DNA of 64,000 bases from a virus: IMG/VR virus record IMGVR_UViG_3300029505_000004, positions 1 to 64,000 of that record, one strand, 5' to 3'. Under the pieces are notes generated by a model that was not told where the DNA came from, ran no database searches, and saw nothing but the letters and a program-made list of their open reading frames with translations. Within the stretch, counting starts at the first letter, position 1. Each line of letters starts with the position of its first letter. Made by a program: the position numbers and the translations under genes. Of the stretch, positions 33,607 to 57,128 are shown piece by piece.

Positions 33607-35585
33607 GCTGCTTGTTGTATTATTCCGTCTTGTGGAGAAGCATTTGCATCGTTCATCATCTTCTCCATAAGTGCCGGATTTTGACTTGCTATCTGTTGCA
33701 TCAGTGCCGGATCCATCTGTGTCATGTTCTGGTTTTCTGCCATTTCCTGCTCTGCACGTTTGATACTTTCCAATATCTTTGATGCAAAAGGCAGACTGGA
33801 GTTTTCCAGCAAGGTCTTTACGTTGATAGCCTGCATTTCAAACAGCTTCATCAGGAATTCGTTTTCAAGCATTTGGAATGTAGGTGTATTTGTTCCTTCT
33901 GTAAGTTCAAGATCAAGCTGCGCACCCTGAACCTTCTCCGGATCGTAATATTTAGATTCTTCAGAATAATCTTTTCCTCCCAATTCTATATATCTGGGCG
34001 AATCATAATATTGCTGAATGGTCTGCATCAGCTTGAGATCTCTCCTTTTCCGGAAGGCTTTAAACGAATCGAACAAACCTTTCAGGTTCATAGATGCGTT
34101 TTCTGTCTGTTGTGCATAAAGAGAAGCGGCAGTTCCGGATGAAGGATCCTTTCCCTGCATAGCTGAGTTTACACCGGCAATATCATTGATCAGTTTTAAC
34201 TGAAGGCTTAACAGTTCATAGTCCCCCTGAATGGCTCCGGATCCGTTAAGCTGTGTAATGACTGAACGAATGTCTTTACCCGGTTTCAGTCGGCAGAAAA
34301 GAACTCCGTTATATCTTACGTATTCATCAATGATTTCTTCCCGGCTCATGCTGTCGAATGCATCTTCATCCACAACTACCAGACCTTTTGCTGAAGAAGA
34401 ACGTATAAAGTCTATCAGCGTCATGGTACGGTTGATACTTCTCTGCTGGTCGATAAAGTCCTCTATGAAATTGAATATCTTTCCGTGTATGATAGGATAA
34501 GCATGAAATACATAGTTGTGCTGGCCGTGCCAGTATGGGCTTCTTCCTTCCTGCAAAACATCACCCCACGGGGAAAGATATCTGTAATACCAGTATCTTT
34601 CTACTTTGAATTCGTATTCTATCAAAAGAATATCTTCCTCTTCTACTCCAGCTTCAAGTGCTTCGGATATTCTTTTCTGGTTTATGTATTCCAGCTTATT
34701 TACTTCGTTCAATCCGACAAAGCCCCAGCTTCCATCAAGCGTGTCGTGGTAGAAATATGCGTCCCTGCTCTCCAGCTTCCAGCCTAGGATAACCCGGCAA
34801 AGATCTACTTCTGCAGGTGTGTAAAAATCGGCATTTTTCTGGTTGTAACCCTGTACACCGTCAACGAATGATCTTCTTGGGTGATCATTGGTTCCATATA
34901 TGCTTTCCAGCCATTCACGATCCTTTTTACTCTTTGCAAAGGCCGCGACTACCTGTTCAAAGTCCATATCAAAGATTTCACCGATGCAGGTTATATCCCA
35001 TCCTCGCTGATCTTCTATGTTTGTATTGAAAAATAGCCGTGAGGGATCAACATTGTAAACCCATGCATCATTCATGTGCTTGTACTCGTTGTACCCGAAC
35101 TCTATTCTTTGTGCAATGTAGCCGCCACATTCCAGAACCATAAGGCTGGCTGCGTCCAGTTCTGTGATCTCGTTAAGTGACTGAGCATATTCCATTGCAA
35201 TACTCATCATTTCACCGATCTTTGCTTCATCCCGATCTCTTACCGAGCATATAGGTTTTGTTACGTTTCTTCTGAACTGGCCTTCTATGTTCTTAACAAT
35301 CGGTGCTATCATGTTGTTTTTCAAAGGAACCTTACCATTTTTCTTGATAAGTTCTCCTTCAGTCATCATCTTGCCGGTGTCCGGATCCTTTATATAGTCT
35401 CCCCATTGATCTTCTTTCGCATACATCAGGGATCTTTCCATTTTCTTACGGGCAGTGTAAAGGCTGCTCCAGTATGAAGCAAACTCTTCAAGTTCCTCAT
35501 ACGCCGTTCCTCTTGTGCGGTAAACGGTTTCTTTTGTCCTGTCGTCCCGCTTCGGCTTTACAGATCTGTTTAAGAATTTATTCAT
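33603..35585 (-). CDS. portal protein candidate (660 aa)
   Basis: Size, adjacency to terL and to the ejection-protein genes, Q/M/A-rich C-terminal tail; no motif verified. Confidence 0.5.
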   Translation of the reverse strand: MNKFLNRSVKPKRDDRTKETVYRTRGTAYEELEEFASYWSSLYTARKKMERSLMYAKEDQWGDYIKDPDTGKMMTEGELIKKNGKVPLKNNMIAPIVKNIEGQFRRNVTKPICSVRDRDEAKIGEMMSIAMEYAQSLNEITELDAASLMVLECGGYIAQRIEFGYNEYKHMNDAWVYNVDPSRLFFNTNIEDQRGWDITCIGEIFDMDFEQVVAAFAKSKKDREWLESIYGTNDHPRRSFVDGVQGYNQKNADFYTPAEVDLCRVILGWKLESRDAYFYHDTLDGSWGFVGLNEVNKLEYINQKRISEALEAGVEEEDILLIEYEFKVERYWYYRYLSPWGDVLQEGRSPYWHGQHNYVFHAYPIIHGKIFNFIEDFIDQQRSINRTMTLIDFIRSSSAKGLVVVDEDAFDSMSREEIIDEYVRYNGVLFCRLKPGKDIRSVITQLNGSGAIQGDYELLSLQLKLINDIAGVNSAMQGKDPSSGTAASLYAQQTENASMNLKGLFDSFKAFRKRRDLKLMQTIQQYYDSPRYIELGGKDYSEESKYYDPEKVQGAQLDLELTEGTNTPTFQMLENEFLMKLFEMQAINVKTLLENSSLPFASKILESIKRAEQEMAENQNMTQMDPALMQQIASQNPALMEKMMNDANASPQDGIIQQAA

Positions 35586-35680: not shown

Positions 35681-37933
35681 TTATTTCACTTCTTCAAGAA
35701 GTTCTCGTCTGGTTTCTATAATCATATCCTCTATTTCTTTTCGATCTTCTCCTTGAGATTCTTTTGCCATATCGTTTAGTTTTTTCAACTTCTTCTGATA
35801 TGGTTTGTATTTCTGGTATTTATCATACAGATCAGAATTCAGCATTTCTTTATACTCATCTTTGTTTCCGCTTTTCTTTACACCATTAAGTTCATACTTA
35901 AACTGGTCCATTTCATCACGGAGATTAAAGTATTCTGTATTGATTCCAGAAAAAGCATTTCTTTCATCAACAGTATTAAGGAACCTGTTTACAATAGGAA
36001 CATTTCTCATCACCAGATCTTCATCTTTCTGCTGTTCGATTAATGACTTTCCACCATAATATATCGTTTTCCCAGCCTGATTGAATGTTTTGGCCATACC
36101 GCCAAAATAAGATTCAAGAAGGTGTTCTACTTTGGCAGGATTGAAATCTATAAATCCTTTTCGGAATTCAGATCCCGGACCACTACCGTTGCTGATATCA
36201 TTCAGGAATTTGGAAGTATCAACAAGCCATCCTGACGTACCTTTATAAACTCTCTTCCACTCCGGATCACGTTCGTTAAATGGAGATATCTTTGCTACCG
36301 GTTTCCCGGTGAAGTCCTGATTCCAGACATAAGCCTCAAATATTGGAGACATAATATCAGGCATAAACGTCTTTAAGCCTTCATTCCCTGTTGGATTTAA
36401 AGGCAAAAGATCTGCAAGCTGTCCTACTGTTCCTTTTGCGATATTGGTCGCGGAAGGCTTTTCTTTGCCGGTTGTAATCTGATAAGCATAATCACCCAGC
36501 CCGTAGAAAGCCCTTAATTCAATGGGAAGAGGAATAGTCAAAAACGTATCATTACCTGTATATATACAGAGATTGTTTCTTCTTACCCATTCCGGCAGAT
36601 CATTGTACGGATCATCGTCTCCACCGCCAAAGATACTGTACAATACATTGTTTATCATTGGCATTAAAAATCCTGCTGACATAAATCCGCCTAAAGCTGA
36701 ATAGAACTTAACCGGTTGTTTGTCATACAGTCTTTTAAAATTGGTTAGAGACTGAACAGAAGCATTAAAGAAAAGATACAGGTTTCTGAATATACCCGAA
36801 GTCATTCCAAAAAATCCGCCGGTTTTATATCCGGCCCCTTTCTTGTTAAAGTTTACAGTTACTTCTTTCGCATCATTCACAGATTCCGTAATACTTCTAC
36901 CCATTTGTCTGGAAGTCATGTACGTGGTAAATCGTGAAATATCTTCTGCCCATCTGTTGAAATCCTCAAGTCTGTCTATTGCAAAATCCATAGCCATCTT
37001 TGCGGATCCCATCTCACCGTTTATTTTTGGAAGTTCCTTCCTTACTTTTTTCTTGTACTTTTCAACATCATTCAGGTGCATGTATCCGGTTTCACCGCCA
37101 TTCTCGATAAACTCCTGAAAATATCTGTCAGCTTCGGTGTTATTTGGCTTGCCATTCAGGTTTCTCAATACAACAGGCATGGCTTTCAGTATGTTCTTTC
37201 TGAACCTACTTGAATACTTCCCATCTTCTTTTATGCTTACAGCAACATTGGAAAATATCAGGTCTCTTACAAGGTTGCTTAACACAAAAGCCGGGTTTCT
37301 GGTAGTGAAGTTAGCCGCCAACCATCTGTTTGCAGTTGCAATGGATCTGAATATCGGGTTCTGTTCTACATTCGGGTTAGTCAATCCATTGATTGCCTGC
37401 GCTGCTCTTGGATTTCCATTAATGTATATAATATAATCTTTCCCGCCATTCTTTACCTGAACAACATGCTGGGAGATGTTGTTTTTATTGATCCTATAAT
37501 TTATATTAAGACCATTTGACTTTTGTGTTGCACGCCCCTCATTTTTTAATTGCTTCATCTGCTCTTCGTGATTTTTGATCTTTTCAGCAATAGTTTCAGC
37601 GTTGTCGCTTTCTTGAATGTATGGCATAGATATATTCCATTCATCTTTTACCGGATCATATACATACCAAGCCTTTTTCAATGTAGCTATATCAGTAGGA
37701 TGATTTATAACCATACTCATAAAACTTTGCTTCATCATGTTTCTGTTGCCTTGCATGATAGCACTTTCGGCCATATTTCCAATTGTGGCAAATATTTCAT
37801 CAGGAATACTCTTTCTTCCCTTTGCGGATTTCAGTACAGAACTTACAGGATTTCTTTCTGAATCAATATATTCATAAACATCTTCTGCTGTCTGTTCATC
37901 CCATCCGCGCAAGGGTACATAATACATGTACAT
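35681..37933 (-). CDS. 750-aa ORF: C-terminal portion of the IS-split polyvalent virion protein gene (may still be translated from its own ATG)
   Basis: The four codons between the IS end (37946) and ATG 37933 (GINN) are open and in frame; after in-silico IS removal they join the giant ORF in frame. Confidence 0.6.
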   Translation of the reverse strand: MYMYYVPLRGWDEQTAEDVYEYIDSERNPVSSVLKSAKGRKSIPDEIFATIGNMAESAIMQGNRNMMKQSFMSMVINHPTDIATLKKAWYVYDPVKDEWNISMPYIQESDNAETIAEKIKNHEEQMKQLKNEGRATQKSNGLNINYRINKNNISQHVVQVKNGGKDYIIYINGNPRAAQAINGLTNPNVEQNPIFRSIATANRWLAANFTTRNPAFVLSNLVRDLIFSNVAVSIKEDGKYSSRFRKNILKAMPVVLRNLNGKPNNTEADRYFQEFIENGGETGYMHLNDVEKYKKKVRKELPKINGEMGSAKMAMDFAIDRLEDFNRWAEDISRFTTYMTSRQMGRSITESVNDAKEVTVNFNKKGAGYKTGGFFGMTSGIFRNLYLFFNASVQSLTNFKRLYDKQPVKFYSALGGFMSAGFLMPMINNVLYSIFGGGDDDPYNDLPEWVRRNNLCIYTGNDTFLTIPLPIELRAFYGLGDYAYQITTGKEKPSATNIAKGTVGQLADLLPLNPTGNEGLKTFMPDIMSPIFEAYVWNQDFTGKPVAKISPFNERDPEWKRVYKGTSGWLVDTSKFLNDISNGSGPGSEFRKGFIDFNPAKVEHLLESYFGGMAKTFNQAGKTIYYGGKSLIEQQKDEDLVMRNVPIVNRFLNTVDERNAFSGINTEYFNLRDEMDQFKYELNGVKKSGNKDEYKEMLNSDLYDKYQKYKPYQKKLKKLNDMAKESQGEDRKEIEDMIIETRRELLEEVK

Positions 37934-37945
37934 GTTATTTATTCC

Positions 37946-39019
37946 AATCAGCAGTTGAACTGCTGTATTTTTATAAGTTTAACCGAGGTCATTTAGACCT
38001 CAAAAAAGTTGTAAATAGTTGAAAATTAAGGGATAAAATACTTGCAAAAGTCCTTGAAAATCAGTAACTTAAAGTAAAAAACACCCCTATTTTTTGCTTG
38101 TTATGATTCCCAAGGACAAAGCTCTAAGACTTATAAGAACCTATATGTATATCTGCAATATGTACGAACAAAGTCTCAAATACCATTGCCAAAGATACAG
38201 CAATAATTCGAAACCGTTGTTCTCCGACGAGGAAATTCTCACGATTTATTTCTTTGTCGGTCATGAGCAGAAGTACACCCTCATCAAGGATATTCACAAC
38301 TTCGCTAAAGAGTACCTACGCGACTGGTTCCCGAACCTGGTGTCCTATCAGACATTCAATTACCGTCTAAATAGGATGGCCGGTGCTGTTACGGAACTGT
38401 CCTCACAGTTGTTAAGCATGTTCAAGCCTTCTGACTGTCAGGAAGATACCGTCATTGTTGACTCGATGCCGATAATCACATGCTGCGGAAGGAACCGTAC
38501 AGGTAAGGTCGCCAGGGATATTGCCGACAAGGGATACTGTTCCACCAAGAACCTGTACTATCATGGAATAAAGCTTCACATGGTAGGCTATCGAAGGAAA
38601 GGACATCTCCCGCATCCATGCCAGATCGCACTGTCGCCAGCATCCGAGAATGACCTGAAGGTCTTCCAGAGCGAATGCATGCCGAATCTTTTTAACAAGA
38701 AGATCTTCGCTGACAAGATATACCGAAGCTGTGACTACTGGGAGCTGGAGAGACGCGATAAGGACAATGAGTTCTACGCTCCCGTCAAGTCCATCAAAGG
38801 GGCTTCCGAGGAAGAAAAGCAGAGAAGCAAGGCTGCAAATGACCTTTATTCTCAAGCCGTTTCTGCTGTTAGGGAACCCATTGAGGCACTCTTCAGTTGG
38901 CTGAACGAAAAAACAAATATTCAAAGAGCTTCAAAGTGCCGCTCTACTTGCGGACTGCTAATTCATACGATGGGAAAGGTTGCCATCGCATTTTTATACC
39001 TTATTTTCAACTACTGATT
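37946..39019 (+). mobile_element. IS982-family insertion sequence (~1074 bp) with an interrupted left inverted repeat
   Basis: Terminal IRs AATCAGCAGTTGAA (37946-37959) and the reverse complement of 39006-39019 AATCAGTAGTTGAA. An inner IR continuation at 38016-38038 matches 38991-39013 in about 21 of 23 positions. The transposase stop at 39015-39017 lies inside these ends. No target-site duplication seen. Confidence 0.75.
38103..39017 (+). CDS. IS982-family DDE transposase
   Basis: VIVDSMPIITC, KGYCSTKNLYYHGIKLH, ASENDL, ADKIY and REPIEALFSWLNE blocks match the IS982 transposase pattern; ATG at 38103. Confidence 0.75.
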   Translation: MIPKDKALRLIRTYMYICNMYEQSLKYHCQRYSNNSKPLFSDEEILTIYFFVGHEQKYTLIKDIHNFAKEYLRDWFPNLVSYQTFNYRLNRMAGAVTELSSQLLSMFKPSDCQEDTVIVDSMPIITCCGRNRTGKVARDIADKGYCSTKNLYYHGIKLHMVGYRRKGHLPHPCQIALSPASENDLKVFQSECMPNLFNKKIFADKIYRSCDYWELERRDKDNEFYAPVKSIKGASEEEKQRSKAANDLYSQAVSAVREPIEALFSWLNEKTNIQRASKCRSTCGLLIHTMGKVAIAFLYLIFNY

Positions 39020-42000
39020 CAAATTATTTACATTAGAGTATTGTTCCTTTCCCATCATTCCGCTATCATAAGCCTTACGCAATGTGGTTTTGGTTGCATC
39101 GTTGATCTTATTCCACAACTCTTTTACATCATATGTCTGTTCAAAGTCCTTGACGTAATTAAGCGCATCTTCTTGGAAGTTATCATGTTCTTCTCCGTCC
39201 ATACTGTTAAGAATGGCCTGTGTAGCTGAATAGTCATTTACACCTCCAATATAATCACTCAGTTCTTTCAGGTATTCATATCCTGAATATAACTTCCTCA
39301 GTCTTTCCTTTTCATCTTTAAAATCCTGAATTAATTGATCCGCATTGCCCTTTTTGTTTTTGATAACTTCATCAAGCCGTTCCCGGAATGTAAGTTCTAC
39401 GTTTCTTTCAATTCCGTGGGCCAACATCATATACCGTTCAATACCCTTTTGAGTAAGGCCGTACTTCTTCATCATCTTACCGGCTTCCTGAAGCATTGGC
39501 TGATAATGTTTCTTATAATACACTTCTGCTTCGGAAGTGTTTTTTGAACTTAACTGGTTTTCTGCCATGTATGCGTTCTCAAATGACTTTATAGGTTTAC
39601 CGGAAACTTTAGCAATTACTTCCTGAAGGTTTTTCAAAGCAAGCATACTGTCTTGATATGCTTCCTGTGCCTTATATTTCCATCCTTTCAAAGATTGCTC
39701 ATACATACCTATACTTCCGTCTGTATCTTCCCTAAAGTAGTTACCTACTCCCATCTGGTACTGCATGGCAACATCTTTGGCCAGATCAAGCGGTTTGTTT
39801 TTGTCTAGGTTCTGGCGGCTTCTCCAAAGGATATATTGAAGTTCATTATCACTTATTTTTATGTTAATGCCCATACGTCTCATAAGTGAATTGAATGCCT
39901 GTTTTATCCTTTGCCATACAGAAACGTCTACTCCGTTTTCAGCCATTCTTGCCATGTATTCCTCTGTGGCTATACGTGAATTATATCCATATCTGGGAAG
40001 AGTATCAATAATTTTCTTCCTTACTTCATCGGTAACATTGGCAAAAACATCATCAAGAAAATCATCCATACGATCTTCTCCTACAAGCTGTCTCAATCCG
40101 TAATGTGCAACACCTTCGTGAAGGATAGTCTGGTTCACATCTTCCATGCTGGTAGCGTTAGGAAGATATACATACACTTTGTTGTCTGACAAAGAATACC
40201 ATCCCTTTACTTTCCTTCCTTTTTCAATGGCAGATCTTACTGAGTTATCCTTTATCTGGTCAACAGAAGTTATAACCTCTACCGGAACATTCAACTTTTT
40301 AGATGTTTCTTCTACATCTTCCGATTTTATGTTGTTTAAGTCCTGATTTTCTTCCGAAACCCTAAAACGCACATCTTCGCTATTCTCCAGTTTTGCCTTC
40401 TTTGATACGGTTACTCCCATCTTACTTAACCGGTCAAGAACTTTAGACAGGTTATCGGAAGAAATATCCGCAACCATGTAATTACCCCTAGTTGTAAACT
40501 CTTTGTTGTCAGCAAGTGAACGTAACTTGTTGTCCTCAAAGAATTCTCCACCTTGTTTTTTGGATTTAGGAACCTTTAAAGCATATCCGGATCTCCAGCC
40601 GGTGTTTTTCTCCACAATGACACGTTTATCTTCACTGATAACAGTTTCACCCTGCTGTATCTGGATAAGTCTGCTGCTGATAGGAGCACTTGTTGTAAGA
40701 TTTTCCGGCTTGAAGCTATCAGACATCAGAATACCCTGTTTCGTATCACCTTCAATAGTAGAATATGAAACCAGATATCCTTTTACGTTTTCTGATTTTT
40801 TTGTATCAACTAGGGCCTGCAGAAGGTTACCTGTAACAATATAGGCCTTCTTTCTTGTCTGGGTAGGCACATAAGAATCCCAGGTATCAACATTAAGATC
40901 CTTCAGGTAAGTCGGCTGCATCATTGTGTTCATACGGATCGAATTGAAAGCTTTTTCCTGATTTAACGGTATTTCTACTTTCCTTCTTCCGTCAAGAGTG
41001 GCAAAAATGGCAGTAGAAGAACTCGGTGAATAGTCCTTACTGAACTTGTACCCCAAAAACATACCACGACTTGGCATAATTGTTACCAGTGTTTCGTCAA
41101 GATTGAATGGTATTACAAGAGGTTTCATAGGAGTAAACGAATTGATCTGCTTGCGAATGTTTTCCCTTCGGGCTTCAATTACGTTCTTCTGTTTTATGAA
41201 GCTTTCTTTCGATTTCTTCATAATATCCTCTACAACTACCTCGGACATTTTTTCAATTTCTTCGTCCGTAAACTCATTCTTTCCGTTTTTGCGGGCTTCT
41301 TTAGACTTTTCGATGTAGTTCTTCTTGGCTTTTTCAGAACGCTCTAACGCGCTTTGATCAAGCCTTTCTTTCAGAGTGGCAATTTTACCATCATACAATG
41401 AATTTATTTCCTTAACTCTATTGTCCAGCCATTCATTGAAAGGTTCTCCAGAAGTCATACGACTAACTGTTGACTTGATTTCTTCCGCTTTCATGGGCTT
41501 TTTAAGGACATCTACTTCTACTTCTTCCAGATAAGTGTTATCCGCAAAGGCATTACCGCTATTGGGATCCGTTCCCGGCTTCCATATCTTTTTGCTGATA
41601 GTTTTGGCCTTCAACGGCATAGTGGTAATTTCAAGATCGTTTTCTCCGGCGTCATTAAGAAGCTGGATCTTTACATTGTATGCGTCTGTGATATCCTTGA
41701 AAACTTCTTCCTGTTCTTTTACAGGCAGGAATGGAAGATATCTGGCTATTTTGGCCGCACACCCTTCTTTACCTGCGGTGTTGGTATCTCCTGACTGGGA
41801 TTCTTCTCCTTCGCTTGTGAGGATTTTAAGAGGATCACCCAGTTTTTCGGACAACTCCGGATGCTCAAGCATATACTGCCATGTCACATCGTCACCGTAC
41901 TTGTTGAGGTAATCAACAACTTCCATTTCGTTGAACTTGGATTTCTGAGAAGATGTAGTATTTGCATCAAGAGACTTAAGTTTTGCCTTGAACATCATCT

Positions 42001-45000
42001 GTAATCTTTGTTCTGCCGGGATAGACGACATGATATACTCATATTTTCCTCTGAACTTCTGGCCGGTTCTGTCTATACGTCCTCGCATCTGCACTTCATC
42101 ATTGATATCACTCTGGAACTGGGCAAACACCATGACGCGCTGACGCTGATCCTCAAACTTGGGTGAAGCATGAAGGGATATACCTGTACTACCAGACTTG
42201 TTTACCATAAGCACGTCAAGTTGTCCGTTGTTGAAATCACGTGCGGCAGACTTCTTATCACGGTCCTTACGGTTCTGTATGACATACTTTCCGTTTTCGT
42301 CCTGAACCATCTCAAGTGTTCTACCTGTGATTTCTCCAACCTTATATCCTGCCTTCTGGATCTTCATCTTAATTGCGTCCATAGGGCTTATAGGAAGGTC
42401 CGCGGAAAGGTTTTCAATCTTTTCCCTGATCTCGTAATACTTGTTTTGTCCGGCTTCCGGAAGGTCGTTCACAGTGAAGAACTTGTTTTCCTTTTCTCCC
42501 TTCAGGTTGGTTTCCGTATATCTCATAACTCCGTCAAGCGCACGCATAAGAGTTGCTGAGAAGTTTGGCACCTTATCCATAGGAGTGTCTTTAGGTGCTT
42601 CATCCAGAAATCCTTCCATCGTATTGGTGAAGGATATTACAGGCTTAAAACCATTCTTAAGGTTTTCAATAACCCTGTTGGCGACTGCATCTGCCTTAAG
42701 AGAGAAAAGCAACTGATTTACCAGATTATACATTTTGCTGGCAAATGGTGTATTGGTTACTCCCAGTTCTGCGGTACCCTGCTGGAGATCGGAATAACCG
42801 CCTTGTTCGGACAATTCTTCGGAAATGCCTTCGACAATAGGTGTAATGTAGTCTTTCTGGAACGCCCTGATATCACTGAATATTGAAGATACTTCATCGA
42901 ATTGTTTTCTCTGAACCGCATCTTCTTCTTCACTTACCGGCATCCAGTCAATAGTTACACCTTGAAAACTTCTTTCTCTTCGGATCATCTGTCCGGATTG
43001 AACAAGCTGTTTGGACATGATCTCCTGCAATGTAACACCACCTTGAGATATTGCTTCGATCATATCCTGTGGTGATATGCCAGACTTGGAAAGGTCGGTT
43101 TTCATTGCATATATAGGCATGTTATCCGCACGTTTGGCGAATGTGGCAGACAGGAATGTTACTCCTTTTACCTTTGGCATGATATACTGCATGTACATGG
43201 ATCCACCGCCACTTCCACCGGCTGTATGACTTTCATCTAGGATCATAATGTTATCCTTTGACAAGGCTTGAATAACATCACGTCTTTCCTGACCGCTCTT
43301 GTCTGCTGCCGAAGGAGATTTCTTCTTATAACTCTTGTCTTTTTCAGCTATTCCATCTTCTTTTGGCTCATATTCTTTCGTTCCATTATTGATCTGGGAA
43401 TATGTAGTTATGACGTAATCATACTCTTCTGGAAGCTTTCCGTTCTTCATAATGTAGTCAAACACTCTTTTCTTCTCCTTGTCGGTAGGAAGTTTGTGTA
43501 CTACATTCCCGGACGCATCAGTAATAGCTGCGTTTTTTGGATCTGACGCGATGATAAACGGCCTTAAATCTCCGCTGCCTATATCTGCAAGGTCTCTGTA
43601 ATTATCAGAGAAAAGCGCGGGCTTCTGAGTGAAGTATATAGGGTTATAACCCTTCCTTACCGCATATCTGATTAAGGCTGCACCCTGACGGCCCTTTCCG
43701 ACACCGGTCATATCTCCGATAATGAATCCGTTTCCTTTATTCATCTGGTTTATAGCCAAAGAAACAGAATCAATCTGTTCAGCGGCCAGATAACTGAACA
43801 GTTCGTCTTTGCTTGAATATCCAAGCTGGTCAACCAAGAACTGGTCTACATCACCAATGTTAGCCAGAGAATCGGCAAGAACTTGTGCTTGATTTGCCGG
43901 AACAACTGACATAAGTGTACCGGACTGGCTTCTGTTGGGATATGGGACTTTTTCATCACTGAGGTTTACTGATAATCTGCTTCTGCCGGTGTTATCTCCT
44001 GAATCAGATCTGACAGATCCACCATTCCGGCTTCCTCCGGTACTTCCTCCGTTATCAGATCCTCGCTGCTCTTGAACAGGTTCAACGCTTCCTGCATTTG
44101 ATCTGTCCGCATTATCCAATTTGCCAGCATTTTCTTCTGCTGTGGATCGTTCAGCCTGCTCTGGTCCGGATGCGGTAGTATTACCGGTGCTTCCCATGTC
44201 ATTGTCAGATCCGACTTTTTTGTCTGGTCGTACGGATTTTCCCCGTTCTCCAGACTTTGGTCTATTGCTGACATTATTGTTTGCTCCACTTCCTTCTGTG
44301 TCAGTGGTCCGGGTTTCTCCTTCTGTACCGTTAAAGAGATCCCCCATTTGCTGTAATGAACGTATATCATCTTGAACTCGGTTATATAATTCTTCAAAGC
44401 TGTTTATCTGTTCCGCTCTTGCTTTGCTCTTAACCGGTGGAGCAATAAGTTTAAACGGACCAGTTTTTCTTCCGTTGATAAGGATAATACGAACGTCATA
44501 TTTAGTTCCGTTCCTCTTGTACATATCCCCGTTAAGGTTGATAACATCAACCACATTATAGTGTGAGTAAAGATACGCAAAAAGTTTCATATCTTTGCTC
44601 TGCATCGCACCATTATCTCGATAAGAAGTATTTCCACCGATAACAATAGCCGCCCTTCCGTTATCCTTCATGGATTCAAGCGCATTAATAGCCATCAAAC
44701 CTTCCAGAGAACTGATCTTGATCTGTCCGTCGTCGAATTCTTTTGCGGTTGTCGATCCAAATGGGGGATTTGTCAGAACTGCGTCAACAGATCCTTCAAA
44801 TGGTATCAGTGCATCCTGATTGGTTACCTGGGCATATCCCAGCGTACGAAGGTTTTCCAGTCTCCTTTCATCAATATCATTAACATGTACAGTATTGGCC
44901 GGGAAAGCTATTGTTAGTGCGCCATTCCCTGCTGAAGGTTCCAGAACGCTTTCAACCGTTTTGCCATCCTTGACAAACTTCCCCATTACATATCCGAAGG

Positions 45001-48000
45001 GAGTAGGCGTACTGTATTGCTGGCGTTCAAACCTTGTGCTGTCTCTTGCATTAAGAAGAGGTTGCATATTGTACATATCGACAATAGTGTCATATCCCTG
45101 CTTTTGTTTTGTTGCGTCTCCGTTAATGTAGGATTCAGCTATTAATCTTGTCTCGTTGGTCATTGCCAGTTCAACAAGTTCCTGCATATCTGTTGCTGAC
45201 ATGTCAGAAAGCATGTCATAACCCTTAAGGATATCTTTAACTTCCTTCATGGTTAGGGGATCTACCTGTTCATCATTTCTCTTAGCTATTGCCTTCTCTG
45301 CAATTTTAACGCCAATTATAGAAACGGCTTCTTTCTCCTGCTCGGCTTTTTTCTGGTATTCCTCAGAGTTGCCAAAGAGATCAGAAGGTGATTTTTTTAC
45401 ATCATTACTGGAAGTTGCCTTTTCTATTTCCTTCTCTTTAGCAACATTTTCTATCTGCTGCATTACATCAGGAACAGACTTATCGAAGTTGGTTACATCA
45501 AACTGACTGACTTCGCTGTCCGGGCTCATTCTTTCCGACAAGCCGTTTTCTATTGATTGCGGCATATATCTTGCGGAGCTATAAAATGACTTCAAGTAAG
45601 GCCTGATAACGTCTCCAAGATCATCTACCATTGCTTTGCAATAGTCTGCAAACTTGACTGCACCGCGTTCTATGTGGTACACAGCCATTTCTGCGCCAAT
45701 AGCAATAATTTCAGGATCAATACCGGCATTTAGCTGGCCCAACTTCTGTTTAAGTCTATTTTTAAGTTCCTGGTAACGTTCATCGGAAACAATGTTGTTA
45801 CTTTTTGCAGGTGTATCTTCTGCGTTAGTGGTTGTTTCCTTTTCGGAAACAGGCACTACACTCTTATACTCAGCAAAAGGTTTGGTTTTTCTGTGGGATG
45901 AATTAACCCACTTCTTAAACTCTTCTTTGGAAACACGTGTTATGTTTCCTAGTCCGGTCCAGTCTTTTGAGTAATTAGCCATGTATGCGCGTTTGGCCGC
46001 AAGGGCTGATTTAAACCCATACATAACCTTGTGTTCGTCAAATGTTCCATCAGGGTTTACCTGATCAATAACAAACACATCACCAGTTTCCGGGTTATCA
46101 GAAAGGAATACATCAATGTGATCACCATCTACGCCCTCGGTACCGTGGATATATCCATAGTCGTTGTTCATGGTAACAGACCATTCATTACCATCTGCGT
46201 CTTTTCCAGAACGTACAGATCCCTTCGGGTTTTCAATAGTTACATCGTACCCGTCAATCTTAACATGGCCTTTCTTGTAGTTACCGGCTTCCTTCTGTGC
46301 TTCAGTTGGATTTTGATCTACTTCCGCACGTGCAGCTTCGATATCGGTTTTTACTGTTCCTTCTGGTTCAGGTACCACGCTACCGCTTTTGCCATCAGTT
46401 TTAATTGCTGGCTCCGGTTGTTCTTCGACTTCTCCAGTTCTTCCTTCGTTATCACTTTCGCGTTCAGGCTGAACTGTATTGCCTTGTTCACTGTCTGTTT
46501 GTCCTTCAGTGCTTCCTGCACTTTCTGTTTCTGCTCTTCGTTCATAGTCGTTAATGATTTGCTCAAAGATAGTATTTAATTCTTCATCTGTTACGGATGA
46601 ATACAAGTTATTAAGTTCTTCTTCGATATAGTCTGAATATGCAATCCATTCAGGTACCGACATTCTGTTTTCAGAAGCTTCCCATTCAATAAGCTGGCGT
46701 TCCTGATCTTCTTCATATCCCGGAATGTTTTCTTCGATATCGGTTCCATGCATGTTTTTTGCGGCGTCCCACATCTTAGAAGGACTTCCATATTCTTGGA
46801 AAGCATTAATGATCATGTTGAACACGTCCTGATCAGTAACCATTCCCTGCAAGTTCTCCGGCATATCAGCATGGATCTGTTCTGCTGCGGCTTCTGGCGT
46901 TAAACCATCGGAAGATAATGCCCATACAAGCTTTTTCCTTTCTTCCGGTGAGTTGGAATAGCCCAGATGTGAAGAAAGGCCCTGTGCTCCTTCTGTGTCA
47001 GACAGAGAGAACGAAACGCGGCCTGTTGCTATTTCTCGCAAAACATGTTCCTGTGGAGTTATGGAAGGGCCTAGATCTGCATCTTCTTTGACATAACGAA
47101 CCTTTTTCCGCGGTTCCTTGCGTTCAAAGGCTCCTGCATCAATCTTCTTCTGAACTTCCTGCTGTGCAGCTTGCTGTTCTTCGGCTGTCATGGATGCAAG
47201 ACGTTGCTGGTTTTCTTTAGCCTTTTCTTCTGCCTGAGCAATAAGTCCGGTAGGCCTTTTTGCTTCAAGATCCGCTGCAACCTGATTCCAATAGGATATC
47301 TTGTCATTGATAGCTTTTTTTGCCTTCTTTGTCTCAATAATTCCCTGAATAGTGTTTCCGGAAGATTTTTTCTTTTCAACTTTTTTTAGTTCGTTATTAT
47401 AATACTCAATCATCTGCGTTACGGTGTCCTTCGCATCATCAACATTATCACTGATTTCCAGCAATGCGGCAGAAGTATCTGCAATCGGTGCGGCTTCAAA
47501 GTCTTGTTCACCTCTTTCGTTAAGAGGAATGCGAGACATGGCAGTCTGATTTTCCTGAACCGGTTGTTCAGAAGTTTCTTCCTGTACAGGCTGTTCAGCT
47601 ACAGAAGGCTGTGTTTCTTCTCCATTAGCTGGCTGTTGGCCGTTGATGGCATTTCTTATTTCTTCTTCGGACATCAGCTGTGACTGGGCTGGCGTTCCAT
47701 TTTCATCAAGAAGGTACACTTCATATCCGTCTGGAGTTACCCTGTTGACTTCATAATTGTTTCCACCCATTGTAAATCTGGTTTCTGGTCCTATGGGCTG
47801 TTGTTCTTGGGCCGGAATAGAATTAATCTGTGCTTCTTCGGCTTGCAAGACTTCTTCTTGCGCATCATTACCGGCACGCTGGATCATTTCTTCTGCCGGT
47901 GTATTATCTACAAGAGAACTGAACATAGATACAGGAGCCATTTTCACACGTCCATCTTCCGACATGTAGTATATGGTCTTATCAGATTGATTTTCATCAA

Positions 48001-50392
48001 CTTTACCTTCGTTATCAAACACAAGGTTTCCGCGAAGAACATTAACAGGATTTTTGGTTAGCTTGTTATTTACCCGCATGATCGTGCCGGTGGTTGCATT
48101 GGTAAGGCTTTCGACTTGTGCTTCCGCTTGTCTCCTTGCATTATCAGCCTGATCTTGCACCCAATAATTATAATTAACAAAATCATCATAGGCTTGTTTG
48201 TATTTCATTATGTTGTTGGCCGTTTCCGGATCAAATTGAGATATGATAGCCTGATATCCTTCTTCTGAATTGATGATAGAGTTGAGTTCTTCATCGTTCA
48301 AGCTGATCTTAGAACGCGTCTCATTCAGATTGTTGATAATGTTCCTTTTTTCAACAGCAATTTCTTCCGGCATCATCTGTTTGTCTGCTTCCTGTAAGGT
48401 TTGTTCCTGAAGGACTGAAGATATATACTTGATAGCATTCTTCTTCATATCCGGAGACATAGGGCTGGACAGAACATCTTTGACCATGTTGCGGGCCGTT
48501 TCAATATCAGCGTCCTGAAGGGCTTCTCTTACACCGGACCAATCTTCGCCCATTGCATCCTGCATCTGGGTTTCAAAATTACGCATGTTGCGGTAGTTCT
48601 TGTATTTATCACGAAGATATCCACCTGTTCCGGCTGCACCAAACAATGCAGACATGGGAGCAACACCGAGGAACGTATCAATATTCTGATCAAGATCGAC
48701 AAGCTGTTCAGGTGTCATATCTCCTATTGCGGTAGATACAAGGTTATTGGCAACTTCTTCGGCATATTCTCCCAATGGATCAGATATCTTGGCACGTCTG
48801 GCAATCTCCTGCATTTCCCGGAAGCCTTGACTATTGACAACGTCCTTGAACGCCTTACCTACTGATGCAGGTATGATCTTTCCAACTTTGTTCGCACCAG
48901 TAACACGACCGATATATCCCAACATAGGCGCAAAGTATTCGCCCAGAAGTTCGCTTCCGGTTTCTGCGGCTGTTGATATTATGGACTTACCGAGTGCTTC
49001 CGCTCCAGTCTGTACATTCTCCCGACCATCATAAGATACCGTTCCGTCTGCGTTAGGCTTAACCTGCACGTCTCCCAGACCTCTACGCTGATAATCTGCG
49101 GCCACTCTTGCACTTCCGAATGTGGCGGTGTGCGCTGCAACGTCTCCCAGACCGGCAACAGTTCTGGCGGCACCTTTAGCCAGCCCAGTTGTAGCCCGGC
49201 CAAGGCCCATTTGTGCAGCCTTATCAGCCGCATACTTAACAATGGCTTTAGACGCTGGTTTGGTCAAAGCCTGAACTGCACCCATACCGGCAATCATGTC
49301 AAGCATGAACGGAAGTGATTCTGCTGTTACACCGCCAGCCTTATAACCTCTTCCAAGATCACCGGAATAATACATCTGTGTTGCAGCATTGGTGACAAGA
49401 GCCTGCATAAGTGCATCTTCCGAAGGAGTAAGTTCTTCCCCCTTGTCTACTTTGTCCATGACTTTCTTTGCGGCAGAATAATTCTTGAGATCCTGCAATC
49501 CCATTGCCCATCCGTCCAGTGGTGCGTCCTTGAAACCACGCGCAAACCCGGCAAAGAAGTTGGTGTTTCCTTTCTTCTTCGCTTCATTGGTAATATTCTG
49601 AGCCTGTTCTATTAGGGTAGACGCATATTCCAACTGTTTGTCGGTATCATTCTGCTCCCCGGCAAGATACGCCTGTGACATGGTTGAGAATATACCGCCA
49701 TCACCAACAGATCTCACGCGCTGTTGTCTTTCCTTAGCACGTTCCTGCCTTGCCGCATTGATCAGTTCATTAACGCTGTTGATCTGCTCCTGATTCTGCC
49801 TTTTGAACAGTTCAAGATTCTGTTCCTTCATATAGGGATCATTGGCAGACTTCTGTGCCTGTTCAACTCTCTGCTGTTGGTCAATACCGATTTTACGGAC
49901 TAGATCCGAAGGATTGTTTTCAAACAGATCTTGCTGGGGCAAAGGCCTTGTGGCAAGATTATTCCCCTTGCTCCTGAACATATCAGGAACATTGTCAAGA
50001 ATGTACCCTTGTGTCTTGGGATCATAAGAAGGCATATCTTGAACTGGCTGTACTTGCGGCTGTTCCGGCTGAACATTCTGGGTTCTCACATTGGTTGCCG
50101 GTTCTTCCTGTGATCTGGCTACCAGTTTGCTCGAAAACGAATCGAAGTCGCCAACATCATATCCATCATTTGTAATTGTCTCATACAACGATTTCCGTTT
50201 AGTTTCGTCCTGTACATTCTTGCTGAACGAATCGAAGTCGCCAACATCATATCCATCATTTGTAATTGTCTCATACAACGATTTCCGTTTAGTTTCGTCC
50301 TGTACATTCTTGCTGAACGAATCGAAGTCGCCAATATCATAACCATCTTGGGTTAGTCTATCATACAATACTCTTGTCTTATTATCTTCCAT
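39011..50392 (-). CDS. giant DarB-like polyvalent virion protein, N-terminal 3791 native residues (truncated by the IS, which supplies NQ plus TAG)
   Basis: ENPKGS (46217-46246) and DGDHIDV (46106-46130) are pyrophosphatase-like. EPSAGNGAL (44916-44947) and TNPPFG (~44757-44775) fit an N6-adenine MTase. GDMTGVGKGRQ (43685-43717), ILDESH (~43225-43245) and RGRIDRTGQ (~42065-42095) fit a strawberry-notch/DExH helicase. Confidence 0.8.
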   Translation of the reverse strand: MEDNKTRVLYDRLTQDGYDIGDFDSFSKNVQDETKRKSLYETITNDGYDVGDFDSFSKNVQDETKRKSLYETITNDGYDVGDFDSFSSKLVARSQEEPATNVRTQNVQPEQPQVQPVQDMPSYDPKTQGYILDNVPDMFRSKGNNLATRPLPQQDLFENNPSDLVRKIGIDQQQRVEQAQKSANDPYMKEQNLELFKRQNQEQINSVNELINAARQERAKERQQRVRSVGDGGIFSTMSQAYLAGEQNDTDKQLEYASTLIEQAQNITNEAKKKGNTNFFAGFARGFKDAPLDGWAMGLQDLKNYSAAKKVMDKVDKGEELTPSEDALMQALVTNAATQMYYSGDLGRGYKAGGVTAESLPFMLDMIAGMGAVQALTKPASKAIVKYAADKAAQMGLGRATTGLAKGAARTVAGLGDVAAHTATFGSARVAADYQRRGLGDVQVKPNADGTVSYDGRENVQTGAEALGKSIISTAAETGSELLGEYFAPMLGYIGRVTGANKVGKIIPASVGKAFKDVVNSQGFREMQEIARRAKISDPLGEYAEEVANNLVSTAIGDMTPEQLVDLDQNIDTFLGVAPMSALFGAAGTGGYLRDKYKNYRNMRNFETQMQDAMGEDWSGVREALQDADIETARNMVKDVLSSPMSPDMKKNAIKYISSVLQEQTLQEADKQMMPEEIAVEKRNIINNLNETRSKISLNDEELNSIINSEEGYQAIISQFDPETANNIMKYKQAYDDFVNYNYWVQDQADNARRQAEAQVESLTNATTGTIMRVNNKLTKNPVNVLRGNLVFDNEGKVDENQSDKTIYYMSEDGRVKMAPVSMFSSLVDNTPAEEMIQRAGNDAQEEVLQAEEAQINSIPAQEQQPIGPETRFTMGGNNYEVNRVTPDGYEVYLLDENGTPAQSQLMSEEEIRNAINGQQPANGEETQPSVAEQPVQEETSEQPVQENQTAMSRIPLNERGEQDFEAAPIADTSAALLEISDNVDDAKDTVTQMIEYYNNELKKVEKKKSSGNTIQGIIETKKAKKAINDKISYWNQVAADLEAKRPTGLIAQAEEKAKENQQRLASMTAEEQQAAQQEVQKKIDAGAFERKEPRKKVRYVKEDADLGPSITPQEHVLREIATGRVSFSLSDTEGAQGLSSHLGYSNSPEERKKLVWALSSDGLTPEAAAEQIHADMPENLQGMVTDQDVFNMIINAFQEYGSPSKMWDAAKNMHGTDIEENIPGYEEDQERQLIEWEASENRMSVPEWIAYSDYIEEELNNLYSSVTDEELNTIFEQIINDYERRAETESAGSTEGQTDSEQGNTVQPERESDNEGRTGEVEEQPEPAIKTDGKSGSVVPEPEGTVKTDIEAARAEVDQNPTEAQKEAGNYKKGHVKIDGYDVTIENPKGSVRSGKDADGNEWSVTMNNDYGYIHGTEGVDGDHIDVFLSDNPETGDVFVIDQVNPDGTFDEHKVMYGFKSALAAKRAYMANYSKDWTGLGNITRVSKEEFKKWVNSSHRKTKPFAEYKSVVPVSEKETTTNAEDTPAKSNNIVSDERYQELKNRLKQKLGQLNAGIDPEIIAIGAEMAVYHIERGAVKFADYCKAMVDDLGDVIRPYLKSFYSSARYMPQSIENGLSERMSPDSEVSQFDVTNFDKSVPDVMQQIENVAKEKEIEKATSSNDVKKSPSDLFGNSEEYQKKAEQEKEAVSIIGVKIAEKAIAKRNDEQVDPLTMKEVKDILKGYDMLSDMSATDMQELVELAMTNETRLIAESYINGDATKQKQGYDTIVDMYNMQPLLNARDSTRFERQQYSTPTPFGYVMGKFVKDGKTVESVLEPSAGNGALTIAFPANTVHVNDIDERRLENLRTLGYAQVTNQDALIPFEGSVDAVLTNPPFGSTTAKEFDDGQIKISSLEGLMAINALESMKDNGRAAIVIGGNTSYRDNGAMQSKDMKLFAYLYSHYNVVDVINLNGDMYKRNGTKYDVRIILINGRKTGPFKLIAPPVKSKARAEQINSFEELYNRVQDDIRSLQQMGDLFNGTEGETRTTDTEGSGANNNVSNRPKSGERGKSVRPDKKVGSDNDMGSTGNTTASGPEQAERSTAEENAGKLDNADRSNAGSVEPVQEQRGSDNGGSTGGSRNGGSVRSDSGDNTGRSRLSVNLSDEKVPYPNRSQSGTLMSVVPANQAQVLADSLANIGDVDQFLVDQLGYSSKDELFSYLAAEQIDSVSLAINQMNKGNGFIIGDMTGVGKGRQGAALIRYAVRKGYNPIYFTQKPALFSDNYRDLADIGSGDLRPFIIASDPKNAAITDASGNVVHKLPTDKEKKRVFDYIMKNGKLPEEYDYVITTYSQINNGTKEYEPKEDGIAEKDKSYKKKSPSAADKSGQERRDVIQALSKDNIMILDESHTAGGSGGGSMYMQYIMPKVKGVTFLSATFAKRADNMPIYAMKTDLSKSGISPQDMIEAISQGGVTLQEIMSKQLVQSGQMIRRERSFQGVTIDWMPVSEEEDAVQRKQFDEVSSIFSDIRAFQKDYITPIVEGISEELSEQGGYSDLQQGTAELGVTNTPFASKMYNLVNQLLFSLKADAVANRVIENLKNGFKPVISFTNTMEGFLDEAPKDTPMDKVPNFSATLMRALDGVMRYTETNLKGEKENKFFTVNDLPEAGQNKYYEIREKIENLSADLPISPMDAIKMKIQKAGYKVGEITGRTLEMVQDENGKYVIQNRKDRDKKSAARDFNNGQLDVLMVNKSGSTGISLHASPKFEDQRQRVMVFAQFQSDINDEVQMRGRIDRTGQKFRGKYEYIMSSIPAEQRLQMMFKAKLKSLDANTTSSQKSKFNEMEVVDYLNKYGDDVTWQYMLEHPELSEKLGDPLKILTSEGEESQSGDTNTAGKEGCAAKIARYLPFLPVKEQEEVFKDITDAYNVKIQLLNDAGENDLEITTMPLKAKTISKKIWKPGTDPNSGNAFADNTYLEEVEVDVLKKPMKAEEIKSTVSRMTSGEPFNEWLDNRVKEINSLYDGKIATLKERLDQSALERSEKAKKNYIEKSKEARKNGKNEFTDEEIEKMSEVVVEDIMKKSKESFIKQKNVIEARRENIRKQINSFTPMKPLVIPFNLDETLVTIMPSRGMFLGYKFSKDYSPSSSTAIFATLDGRRKVEIPLNQEKAFNSIRMNTMMQPTYLKDLNVDTWDSYVPTQTRKKAYIVTGNLLQALVDTKKSENVKGYLVSYSTIEGDTKQGILMSDSFKPENLTTSAPISSRLIQIQQGETVISEDKRVIVEKNTGWRSGYALKVPKSKKQGGEFFEDNKLRSLADNKEFTTRGNYMVADISSDNLSKVLDRLSKMGVTVSKKAKLENSEDVRFRVSEENQDLNNIKSEDVEETSKKLNVPVEVITSVDQIKDNSVRSAIEKGRKVKGWYSLSDNKVYVYLPNATSMEDVNQTILHEGVAHYGLRQLVGEDRMDDFLDDVFANVTDEVRKKIIDTLPRYGYNSRIATEEYMARMAENGVDVSVWQRIKQAFNSLMRRMGINIKISDNELQYILWRSRQNLDKNKPLDLAKDVAMQYQMGVGNYFREDTDGSIGMYEQSLKGWKYKAQEAYQDSMLALKNLQEVIAKVSGKPIKSFENAYMAENQLSSKNTSEAEVYYKKHYQPMLQEAGKMMKKYGLTQKGIERYMMLAHGIERNVELTFRERLDEVIKNKKGNADQLIQDFKDEKERLRKLYSGYEYLKELSDYIGGVNDYSATQAILNSMDGEEHDNFQEDALNYVKDFEQTYDVKELWNKINDATKTTLRKAYDSGMMGKEQYSNVNNLNQ
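50131..50345 (-). repeat. 90-bp (30-aa) tandem repeat, 2 identical copies plus 1 diverged, at the 5' end of the giant gene
   Basis: 50141-50220 is identical to 50231-50310; encodes DGYD(I/V)GDFDSFSKNVQDETKRKSLYETITN. Confidence 0.9.
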
Positions 50393-52819: not shown

Positions 52820-54055
52820 TTATATCCGCATCATTAAAGCTTCATTCCTCAACTCCAGATAAGGCTTGTACTTGTCCGGATCATTGACATAATCACACAC
52901 TCTTGCAACACATATACTGGCTTGCTGGCTCCTGATTTTGGTATAATATCTTATAATGCCTTTGGCCCGATCGCTATGTCCCAGACAATAATTGATAACT
53001 CCGTCCGGCATACCCAGGTCACATGCGAATTGAGCAAAACATTTCCGCGCTGAATAGAATATTACTTTCTCTTCTATTCCCAGTTCTTCCGCAAGAAGCG
53101 ACAAACAATAAGATACATACTGGGAAAAGTTATGATAGGTGTAATTATACCCGAAATCAAGCTTTCCATCACTCTTGATCCATTCCTGATAATACTTCTT
53201 GATATTCTCCGGCATGGTAAAAGATATCCGGTTCTCCTGCTGTGTCCTTCCTGCTGACTTGGTTCTTACATAGCTGACATCTTCCTTCCGGAAGTCTACG
53301 TTCATAAGGTCTATCAGATTCATGCCGCCCAGAGAGAAGGAAAGCATAAACAGATCTCTTGCCATTCTTAACCTCTTTCTTTCCGGATTGCTGTACATGA
53401 TCTTACGGAAAGATTCAATACTTAACGATACATCGCGGACCGGTGCCGGTGATATCTTGGTTGTCGCGAACGGATGAATAGAATAAGTTACCATCTGATC
53501 CGATACGGCTTTGTTCACAATGACCTTAATGTGGCTTAGTATAGTATTGATATACGTTTGGGTTTTCCCGGCCTTCTTTAGTTTATCAGCAAAAGATTTA
53601 ATCAGGACCGGTGTTATATCCTGCATATCTATATCTCCATTGCAATACTCACAAAAGTAACGGGATGATCTCTCCATCAGTTTTGCATACGATGATCTGT
53701 TGTTGTCCAGAAGATAACTCACATACTCGTTAGATATTCCGCGAAATGTGACTTCCGTGTCAGAAGGCCCGGCCTTGATGATGTCTCTCAATTGCTCGCA
53801 GGTGTAGATGCCGGTGTTGCGAATGTTATCCAGCCGTTCTTCGTACAGATCCATCATTGCACGCAACTTTTTATTGAGTGCTGATGCATCCGGGTGCTTG
53901 ACGATCTTCCCATTTTTAAGCTGGCTTGGATCTGCCAGAATGATTGATGTTACGATGTAACTTGTACGCGACTTGTGACGGACCGCAATTCTCAATTTAT
54001 GCGTTCCATTGATAAGTTGTCTTTCGGGGATAATTACAGGATTGATTGTTGCCAT
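52820..54055 (-). CDS. int: tyrosine recombinase / phage integrase (Bacteroidota arm-binding type)
   Basis: 411 aa; N-terminal arm-binding-like region; catalytic-region blocks MARDLFMLSFSLGGMNLIDL, SARKCFAQ, LGHSD, IRYY. Confidence 0.85.
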   Translation of the reverse strand: MATINPVIIPERQLINGTHKLRIAVRHKSRTSYIVTSIILADPSQLKNGKIVKHPDASALNKKLRAMMDLYEERLDNIRNTGIYTCEQLRDIIKAGPSDTEVTFRGISNEYVSYLLDNNRSSYAKLMERSSRYFCEYCNGDIDMQDITPVLIKSFADKLKKAGKTQTYINTILSHIKVIVNKAVSDQMVTYSIHPFATTKISPAPVRDVSLSIESFRKIMYSNPERKRLRMARDLFMLSFSLGGMNLIDLMNVDFRKEDVSYVRTKSAGRTQQENRISFTMPENIKKYYQEWIKSDGKLDFGYNYTYHNFSQYVSYCLSLLAEELGIEEKVIFYSARKCFAQFACDLGMPDGVINYCLGHSDRAKGIIRYYTKIRSQQASICVARVCDYVNDPDKYKPYLELRNEALMMRI

Positions 54056-54200
54056 AGCTGATCTTCAAATTAAAGGTAATTTTTTGGGTACTCTTTTTCT
54101 TCCAAAAGTGGAAGAATTTTCCTTTTTTTTGAAGGTTGCCGGAGTTTTTGTGAGAAAATCAATAGGGTAAACTCCTTATTTTTCAGCCTGTTATGAATTG

Positions 54201-57081: not shown

Positions 57082-57128
57082 CGCTTGTAGAAAAGCAATT
57101 CTATTTTCTTAATCTTAACCACTGGACA

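Follow-up and report, generated by a model that had tools for sequence, protein, structure and literature searches.

The window, that is, the whole stretch of 64,000 nucleotides analysed here (positions 1 to 64,000 of IMG/VR virus record IMGVR_UViG_3300029505_000004), contains a giant gene for a phage polyvalent protein that is interrupted by an insertion sequence (IS). Two open reading frames (ORFs) on the minus strand, at 39011-50392 and 35681-37933, are the pieces of this single gene, and the IS lies between them at 37941..39024. It seems rather probable, as far as can be judged from sequence, that this is a recent and probably damaging insertion of a host IS, acquired in lysogeny, which cuts the conserved core of the protein and uncouples its cargo while excision and replication of the phage still work. 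The first-pass annotation, made from the letters of the window alone, had recognised that one giant polyvalent-protein gene is split by an IS. This claim holds, because the ORF is continuous in IS-free relatives, including locus L103 and gp3 of Bacteroides phage BS-TP4. The ends that were assigned to the IS and the stated lack of a target-site duplication do not hold.

Reconstruction of the split gene

The upstream ORF (39011..50392, minus strand) encodes 3793 amino acids (aa), which consist of 3790 native residues and Leu-Asn-Gln-stop from the IS end. The stop codon (TAG, 39011-39013) lies within IS sequence, as first annotated, and database protein P0040 terminates in the same way (...NVNNLNQ). 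The downstream ORF (35681..37933, minus strand) encodes 750 aa. Its first residue is a native internal Met, M3791 of the intact protein, and is located 1 nt past the duplicated target. Both fragments are taken from the ORF list, and the coordinates and sizes given earlier for them and for the plus-strand transposase ORF are reproduced.

At the empty site of the relatives, the in-frame coding sequence is AAT GTA AAT AAC ATG. The intact gene has 4540 codons and reads ...KEQYSNVNN-MYMYYVPLRGW... in seven IS-free relatives with 97-98% aa identity. Comparison of the window with these empty sites gives a net insertion of 1089 bp including the duplication. The frame of the giant gene meets 23 stop codons inside the IS. 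Deletion of 37946..39019 in silico does produce an open frame of 4545 codons, as had been reported, but this is not the true restored gene, which has 4540 codons at the empty sites. The residues LGINN at the joint are an artefact composed of IS ends and the duplicated target, because the relatives read ...YSNVNN-MYMYY at this position. Preservation of the frame, with which the lack of a duplication had been called consistent, carries no information, as 1089 happens to be a multiple of three. Any deletion of a multiple-of-three length joins both ORFs, and therefore arithmetic alone cannot place the IS ends.

The upstream fragment contains an LPD14 domain (aa 474-602, 48587..48973, minus strand; Pfam PF18827, E 6e-43) and a strawberry-notch-type helicase composed of AAA_34 and Helicase_C_4 (aa 2202-2923, 41624..43789, minus strand; Pfam PF13872 and PF13871). 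Between them, at 44756..44941 (minus strand), EPSAGNG and NPPFG are present, which are taken here to be amino-methyltransferase motifs. This region is termed N6-adenine methyltransferase-like from these motifs, and Pfam gives no match to a methyltransferase domain in the giant protein at E 0.01. An InPase domain (aa 1364-1496, 45905..46303, minus strand; Pfam PF18823, E 6e-58) is also present, and this domain type is confined to phage polyvalent proteins (PMC5512222). The downstream fragment contains LPD38 (35993-36616, minus strand; Pfam PF18857, E 5e-42). No peptidase family is detected in the giant protein at E <= 0.01 in Pfam and NCBIfam, and no HExxH motif is present; one candidate for such a motif is HExxxH on inspection. 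At 50136-50347, a 90-nt unit is repeated in tandem (2.4 copies, 98% match), which gives the giant protein a 30-aa repeat at its N-terminus. The copy number of this repeat varies among assemblies of the same sequence, in which the ORF has 3793, 3763 or 3725 aa, and the repeat is also where one contig ends.

Ends, target duplication and family of the insertion sequence

The IS (37941..39024, plus strand) is IS982-like. Its 1082 bp at 37942-39023 are conserved among copies, and it probably contains one more base at each end. The left terminal inverted repeat (37942..37959, plus strand) is TTCCAATCAGCAGTTGAA, and the right one (39006..39023, plus strand) is TTCAACTACTGATTCAAA, which is complementary to the left repeat at 15/18 positions. 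When both ends are read inwards, the 18-nt sequences TTCCAATCAGCAGTTGAA and TTTGAATCAGTAGTTGAA agree at 15/18 positions, or at 16/19 with one more base. The 14-nt inverted repeat at 37946-37959 and 39006-39019, from which the ends had been placed at 37946 and 39019, exists and represents the inner part of these repeats. A transposase scan of one genome per species gives 73 loci. For nine full-length IS copies elsewhere (91.5-99.4% DNA identity), the alignment covers exactly 37942..39023, and six more copies obtained by exact-protein look-up (99.7-99.8% identity) give the same bounds. These copies place the ends of the IS at 37941/37942 and 39023/39024. Comparison with other copies had been proposed as a check of the original ends, and the ends of these copies do not coincide with them.

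The sequence TTATTTA is present on both sides of the IS, at 37935..37941 and 39024..39030, with the 5-bp core TATTT at 37936-37940 and 39025-39029. This result contradicts the earlier statement that no target-site duplication is visible. IMG/VR was scanned with a junction-spanning query, which gives 15 loci, and TAAATAA (in the sense of the gene) is single at the empty site of seven IS-free relatives, of which the flanks are the same as those of the window. Perfect 5-bp duplications are present around seven IS copies (L018, L020, L022, L023, L024, L028 and L096), and the duplicated targets among them are TATTT, AAATA, GAATA, GAGTA, TATTA and TAATA. No duplication is visible around the copies L016, L017, L019 and L021. 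An A ends every left flank of the IS copies and a T opens every right flank, and contigs of other assemblies break at 37939/37941. Most simply, these sequences suggest an IS of 1084 bp (37941-39024) with a 5-bp duplication. From the window alone, the bounds may alternatively be those of an IS of 1082 bp with a 7-bp duplication.

The transposase gene (38103..39017, plus strand) runs opposite to the phage gene and is intact, encoding 304 aa. A TTG is located at 38094, the first ATG at 38103 and the stop codon at 39015-39017, the last as originally annotated. The only NCBIfam family matched by the transposase is IS982 (NF033520, E 3.2e-32, 237/243 model positions), with a score of 112 bits against a curated cut-off of 130. 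In Pfam, DDE_Tnp_1_3 scores 25.9 against a cut-off of 27, and DDE_Tnp_1 scores 24.2 against 23, which is borderline. In IS982 transposases, the DDE triad is atypical in that no K/R follows six or seven residues after the Glu (PMC7335449). IS982 elements are about 1 kb long with one transposase gene for about 300 aa, and the IS in the window, with 1082-1084 bp and 304 aa, has this size. Its direct repeats of 5-7 bp are within the range of the family, which is 0-9 bp. However, all copies end with (A)TTCCAATCAG... and ...CTGATTCAAA(T), and not with 5'-AC, whereas the consensus ends of IS982, with which 57/69 catalogued members begin, are AC(N)6T(N)5TT (PMC7335449). The assignment to the IS982 family made in the first-pass annotation is thus supported by transposase homology, below the curated cut-off, and not by the termini.

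At least 22 contigs encode the identical 304-aa transposase, and 2025 proteins belong to its 90% cluster. Public sources label this protein just as transposase, from Bacteroides caccae and Alistipes shahii. Near-identical IS copies are found next to genes for SusD and GH43, and also in a metagenome-assembled genome of Phocaeicola. The other IS copies with 99.3-99.8% identity are in Bacteroidales chromosomal contexts, and therefore a Bacteroidales host is the likely donor of the IS. Megablast of the IS against PLSDB plasmids gives no match. A hairpin with a 7-bp stem followed by a T-run is located at 37949-37965 (plus strand), where it overlaps the left inverted repeat; it could block outside transcription from entering the transposase gene.

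Conserved core module and position of the cut

A database search with P0021, an 886-aa homologue that spans the junction, gives 332 relatives, many of which are 900-1100 aa long and cover the full query. P0099 (892 aa, locus L263) is a genuine stand-alone gene: a giant gene is absent upstream of it, and the genes downstream encode a portal, an opposite-strand terminase-like protein and an SU10-type capsid protein. P0099 and four others (e.g. P0157) begin with M(A/S)KHG(L/I)ERN, 136 aa upstream of the IS junction. Because stand-alone homologues begin at this position, the last ~886 aa of the giant protein represent a conserved core and the first ~3650 aa represent variable cargo. The first 136 aa of the ~886-aa LPD38 core module (MMLAHGIERN...NVNN, 39025..39430, minus strand) remain attached to the N-terminal fragment, and the rest of the module including LPD38 constitutes the C-terminal fragment. 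Core residues H5, G6, E8, R9 and N10 are nearly invariant. Nearly invariant residues are located on either side of the cut, and M137, with which the downstream ORF begins, is one of them.

The AlphaFold2 model of the core module, which was built with an alignment of database homologues, has a predicted local distance difference test score (pLDDT) of 76 and a predicted template modelling score (pTM) of 0.63. In this model, residues 1-135 form a seven-helix subdomain and residues 143-180 form a low-confidence stretch without secondary structure. A sequence profile search of the PDB with the core module gives no match, and a Foldseek search of the model against the PDB gives nothing at E <= 0.001. 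The most conserved motif of the module, Y-x-P-L-R-G...G-R-x-S-x-x-D-x-P (core residues 141-183, about 37385-37513 of the window, minus strand), is located in the sole long stretch that is modelled as disordered. This motif may be a binding peptide or a processing site.

Relatives and age of the insertion

The gene is uninterrupted in 15/15 IMG/VR loci of the lineage of the window, and neither a stop codon nor a two-gene arrangement is found at the junction. Examination of IS-free relatives had been proposed as a check of the split, and its outcome agrees with the split. In two more distant lineages, 94/94 loci are open across the orthologous Met. In gp3 of the cultured Bacteroides phage BS-TP4 (5391 aa), one high-scoring segment pair spans the insertion site with 38% identity. 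Megablast of 35681-41500 against GenBank phages gives no match. The locus L103, in which the IS is absent, shares 99.75-99.89% DNA identity with the window over 21 kb, and therefore the insertion is recent. The perfect duplication, the intact transposase and the 99.3-99.8% identity of other IS copies are further signs of recency. The IS allele is present on five contigs, each with 100% identity to the window, and one sample or strain that was assembled repeatedly may be the source of all of them.

The giant genes of L103-L107 encode 4510-4910 aa, and close relatives that are otherwise 97-98% identical differ in cargo. An extra ART-PolyVal domain is present in L105 (4910 aa), and an in-frame insert of ~284 aa is present in the giant gene of L006. 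In L015, the C-terminal module is swapped after about residue 3676 for one with 30% identity.

Attachment site and form of the phage genome

The tyrosine integrase gene (52820..54055, minus strand; PHROG 1) is located beside the core of the phage attachment site (attP; 54200..54244, minus strand), which is identical to the 3' 45 nt of tRNA-Thr(CGT). Phage DNA flanks both sides of this 45-nt core in the window, indicating the attP, or excised, form. Integrated prophages with an identical integrase are found in L104, L106 and L107, in which a complete tRNA-Thr(CGT) and bacterial genes are present beside the integrase gene. These relatives are integrated at tRNA-Thr (L104:9783-9856), adjoining the acetyl-CoA hydrolase gene of a Bacteroidales chromosome. 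In the SPAdes contig L108, which has the same sequence, window position 54190 is followed by the window end, ~310 nt and the window start. Because L108 joins the end of the window to its start, the molecule is circular or circularly permuted. The first base of L108 and the edge of the att core are exactly 55 nt apart, which would fit a branch of the k=55 assembly graph between attP and the attachment site attL of the integrated form. The window is assigned to a temperate gut Bacteroidales phage, assembled in excised and circularly permuted form. A 24-nt tandem repeat (6.4 copies) is located at 1-154 of the window, and several assemblies break there, which explains why the window begins at this point of the circular genome.

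Consequence of the insertion and alternative explanations

According to the favoured explanation, the giant polyvalent-protein gene of a temperate Bacteroidales phage would have been hit recently by a host-derived IS of ~1.08 kb with an IS982-related transposase. The phage would most probably have been in the prophage state at that time, and an AT-rich target of 5-7 bp would have been duplicated upon insertion. The upstream product would consist of 3790 native residues and three residues encoded by the IS, followed by a stop. It would retain the first helical subdomain of the core as well as all of the cargo (methyltransferase-like motifs, Sno-type helicase, InPase and LPD14). The other 750 codons follow 1.08 kb downstream of this stop, with the oppositely oriented IS in between, and the 750-aa piece would be obtainable solely by independent initiation at the native Met. 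With the core cut in two and the cargo uncoupled, the function of the protein would most likely be impaired or abolished, and the insertion would represent an early step of prophage decay. A scan for sigma-70-type promoters directed outward from the IS gives a chance-level result (three found, 2.9 expected), and the single TAnnTTTG match, 264 nt upstream of the 750-aa ORF, is not accompanied by a correctly spaced TTTG. PTXU04 gp25, a related polyvalent protein, is needed for infection (PMC11879866), and phi24B gp47, which contains LPD38, is an abundant virion protein with a proposed role in ejection. IS elements accumulate in prophages during lysogeny, according to Leclercq & Cordaux 2011 as quoted in PMC7784688, and IS transposases are enriched in incomplete prophages (PMC7744054). 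Interruption of a prophage gene by a host IS is an ordinary, known kind of mutation, and its initial description as unusual is overstated.

Several observations weigh against a damaging insertion and are more readily accommodated if the fission is tolerated. In that case the protein would be split at a linker between subdomains, the 750-aa piece would be translated from the native Met by read-through or IS-borne transcription and would assemble with or near the portal, and the phage would be infectious and would carry the IS between hosts as a passenger. This explanation is considered rather unlikely, but it is the main alternative. In the model, the junction 136|137 is located exactly at the end of the last predicted helix (128-135), before a linker of ~40 residues that contains the low-confidence stretch, and the Met with which the downstream ORF begins is not only nearly invariant but also in an A-rich context. 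The genome is in the attP form and circularly permuted with respect to another assembly, and therefore the IS-bearing genome is not a silent relic; it is able to excise and may replicate. Different elements are located 2 nt upstream of the orthologous Met in one lineage and at the far end of the linker in another, and a second IS at the same codon could mean that splitting is tolerated there. Other splits occur in this family, in which the cargo is highly variable (4510-4910 aa), and frameshift-type splits of the giant gene are found in 5/94 viral loci (~5%). IS1187, a member of the IS982 family, supplies outward promoters in Bacteroides (PMC7335449). On the other hand, natural stand-alone versions begin 136 aa upstream and not at the junction Met, 0/109 viral contigs are split at the junction site, and no convincing outward promoter is found. 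The contigs with the IS are 100% identical to each other and may represent a single sample or strain. The position of one of the two other elements probably reflects target choice, and the other was found under ascertainment bias.

Incorrect threading of a multi-copy IS into the phage contig is very improbable. Gut Bacteroidales do contain multiple copies of the IS, and its ends coincide with breaks in some assemblies, but the duplication on its two sides is perfect, and the duplicated sequence occurs once at the empty site. Moreover, two assemblies that were built differently (scaffold_341 and SPAdes NODE_367) read through both junctions, and two more contigs start at an IS end and run into the giant gene. 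It is more improbable still that two naturally separate genes are present with the IS in their spacer, and this arrangement is ruled out by the IS-free relatives. The database proteins P0056, P0063 and P0136 do begin at the same Met, but either contig ends truncate them or their alleles are disrupted; the frame is continuous in longer contigs that encode 99-100% identical proteins, and the empty site is in-frame coding sequence.

Other interruptions near the junction

An interruption at nearly the same position as that of the window is found at L111:1-60 (ENA ERZ28614406 scaffold_21399), in a lineage with a 40% identical core. The terminus of the element is located 2 nt upstream of the Met that is orthologous to window 37931-37933, and the IS-free relative L131 is 99% identical to L111. 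This terminus is present on 52 metagenome contigs, all of which diverge right after ...GGCTTTTCCA. The element is an IS21-family member of 2664 bp with inverted repeats of ~75 bp and the ends TGGAAAAGCC...GGCTTTTCCA, and is also present in L212, L239 and L253, among others. The assignment to IS21 is based on IstA (NF033546, 225 bits against a cut-off of 160), IstB (PF01695, 225 bits) and TG...CA ends. The third element (L264:1-30), in the L010 lineage, is located 1 nt upstream of an internal Met at core residue 190, at the far end of the linker and 53 codons downstream of the junction Met, and is seen on five contigs. TATGG is present beside 6/6 copies of the end of this element (the other copies are L265-L269), and therefore target choice probably explains its position. 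An ORF of 399 aa is located inside this element.

The frameshift-type splits in viral loci (L163, L176, L182, L196 and L197) consist of two overlapping long ORFs and are located at varied positions. Near the junction, such splits are found at L112:2990-3010, where 1 nt is deleted in the Pro codon of YVPLRGW, and at L130:560-610. They may be real mutations or sequencing errors. In the P0063 lineage (L114:1-41 and L113:1-5; Logan ERR10986130 and ERR11004139), the match with IS-free contigs is lost at a point 13 nt upstream of the junction Met. In L114, this break is preceded by 29 unrelated nt that finish an ORF (...WAKKAMKEAKR*), and two exact-pattern scans of viral contigs for their origin give nothing.

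The junction-proximal cases were found by targeting proteins that start near the junction, a procedure subject to ascertainment bias that covered truncated homologues of this kind. That interruptions around the linker are tolerated may be regarded as a lead, not a result. It is doubtful that the codon hit by the IS is a tolerated fission point of the core, cut by independent elements, from which a Met-initiated C-terminal piece is made while the phage propagates. If it is, giant polyvalent genes could be broken and rebuilt at linkers, and IS elements could travel from one Bacteroidales host to another in viable phages.

Comparison with known systems

The IS resembles IS1187 of Bacteroides fragilis (1028 bp, 326-aa TnpA, direct repeat 7) and IS195 of Porphyromonas gingivalis (1070 bp, 300-aa TnpA, direct repeat 8) (PMC7335449) in its length of ~1.08 kb, its single DDE transposase of ~300 aa, its short and imperfect inverted repeats, its duplication of 5-7 bp and the phylum of its host. 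It differs from IS982 members in its termini, (A)TTCC.../...(T)TTG, and in the transposase score, 112 bits against the model cut-off of 130. The insertion resembles other prophage IS insertions (PMC7784688 and PMC7744054) in that a host IS is located in a gene for a lytic function and a near-identical IS-free sibling exists elsewhere. It differs in that the genome in the window is otherwise complete and in attP form, and in that a 13.6-kb polyvalent gene is hit at a predicted subdomain boundary.

The giant protein resembles phage-type polyvalent proteins (Iyer et al. 2017, PMC5512222) in that it contains several unrelated effector domains, including the phage-only InPase and LPD38, and in that its gene is located beside those for portal and terminase. 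Unlike these proteins, it contains no detectable peptidase domain corresponding to MPTase, and with 4540 aa it is much larger than phi24B gp47 and PTXU04 gp25. phi24B gp47 has the composition LPD5-LPD1-LPD38 and is found in virions. Packaging of the giant protein into the capsid is suggested by analogy with phi24B gp47 only. BS-TP4 gp3 (PQ571277.1; PMC12694917), from a cultured temperate phage, shares the gene order, in which two small genes, the giant gene and the portal gene follow one another, and its 38% identity extends over residues 1482-4539, continuous through the insertion point. It differs in its length of 5391 aa, its annotation as a hypothetical protein and its lack of an IS, and the identity of the portal is just 38%.

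These results correct the annotation of two genes to one gene of 4540 codons. For an abundant, unnamed Bacteroidales IS with ~2000 members in its 90% protein cluster, they define the ends, the duplication and the target, which is AT-rich, and they divide the giant proteins into a conserved, portal-adjacent core (the last ~886 aa) and exchangeable cargo (the first ~3650 aa). If the IS-bearing phage is infectious, it would provide a natural experiment on where such proteins can be split and an example of phage-borne IS traffic in the gut.

Other features of the phage genome

The portal gene (33603..35585, minus strand; PHROG 156, PF16510 P22_portal) is located directly downstream of the split gene and is followed by the gene for the large terminase (31591-33606), which is on the opposite strand. 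Genes for an SU10-like capsid protein (28161-29792), a tail fibre (22053-27020) and a GH108 lysin (14867-15385) are also present. The protein encoded by the integrase gene is identical to that beside bacterial DNA in L104, and genes for an S24 repressor (55084-55704), RecT (58047-58991) and an SNF2 helicase (61247-62680) are located beyond it. Phage tRNA-Arg(CCT) and tRNA-Met(CAT) are also encoded (56575-56647, 57008-57082 and 57249-57755, including the adjoining repeat arrays). Four short tandem-repeat arrays with periods of 10-12 adjoin these tRNAs in a gene-poor stretch, and possibly represent an origin or a regulatory region.

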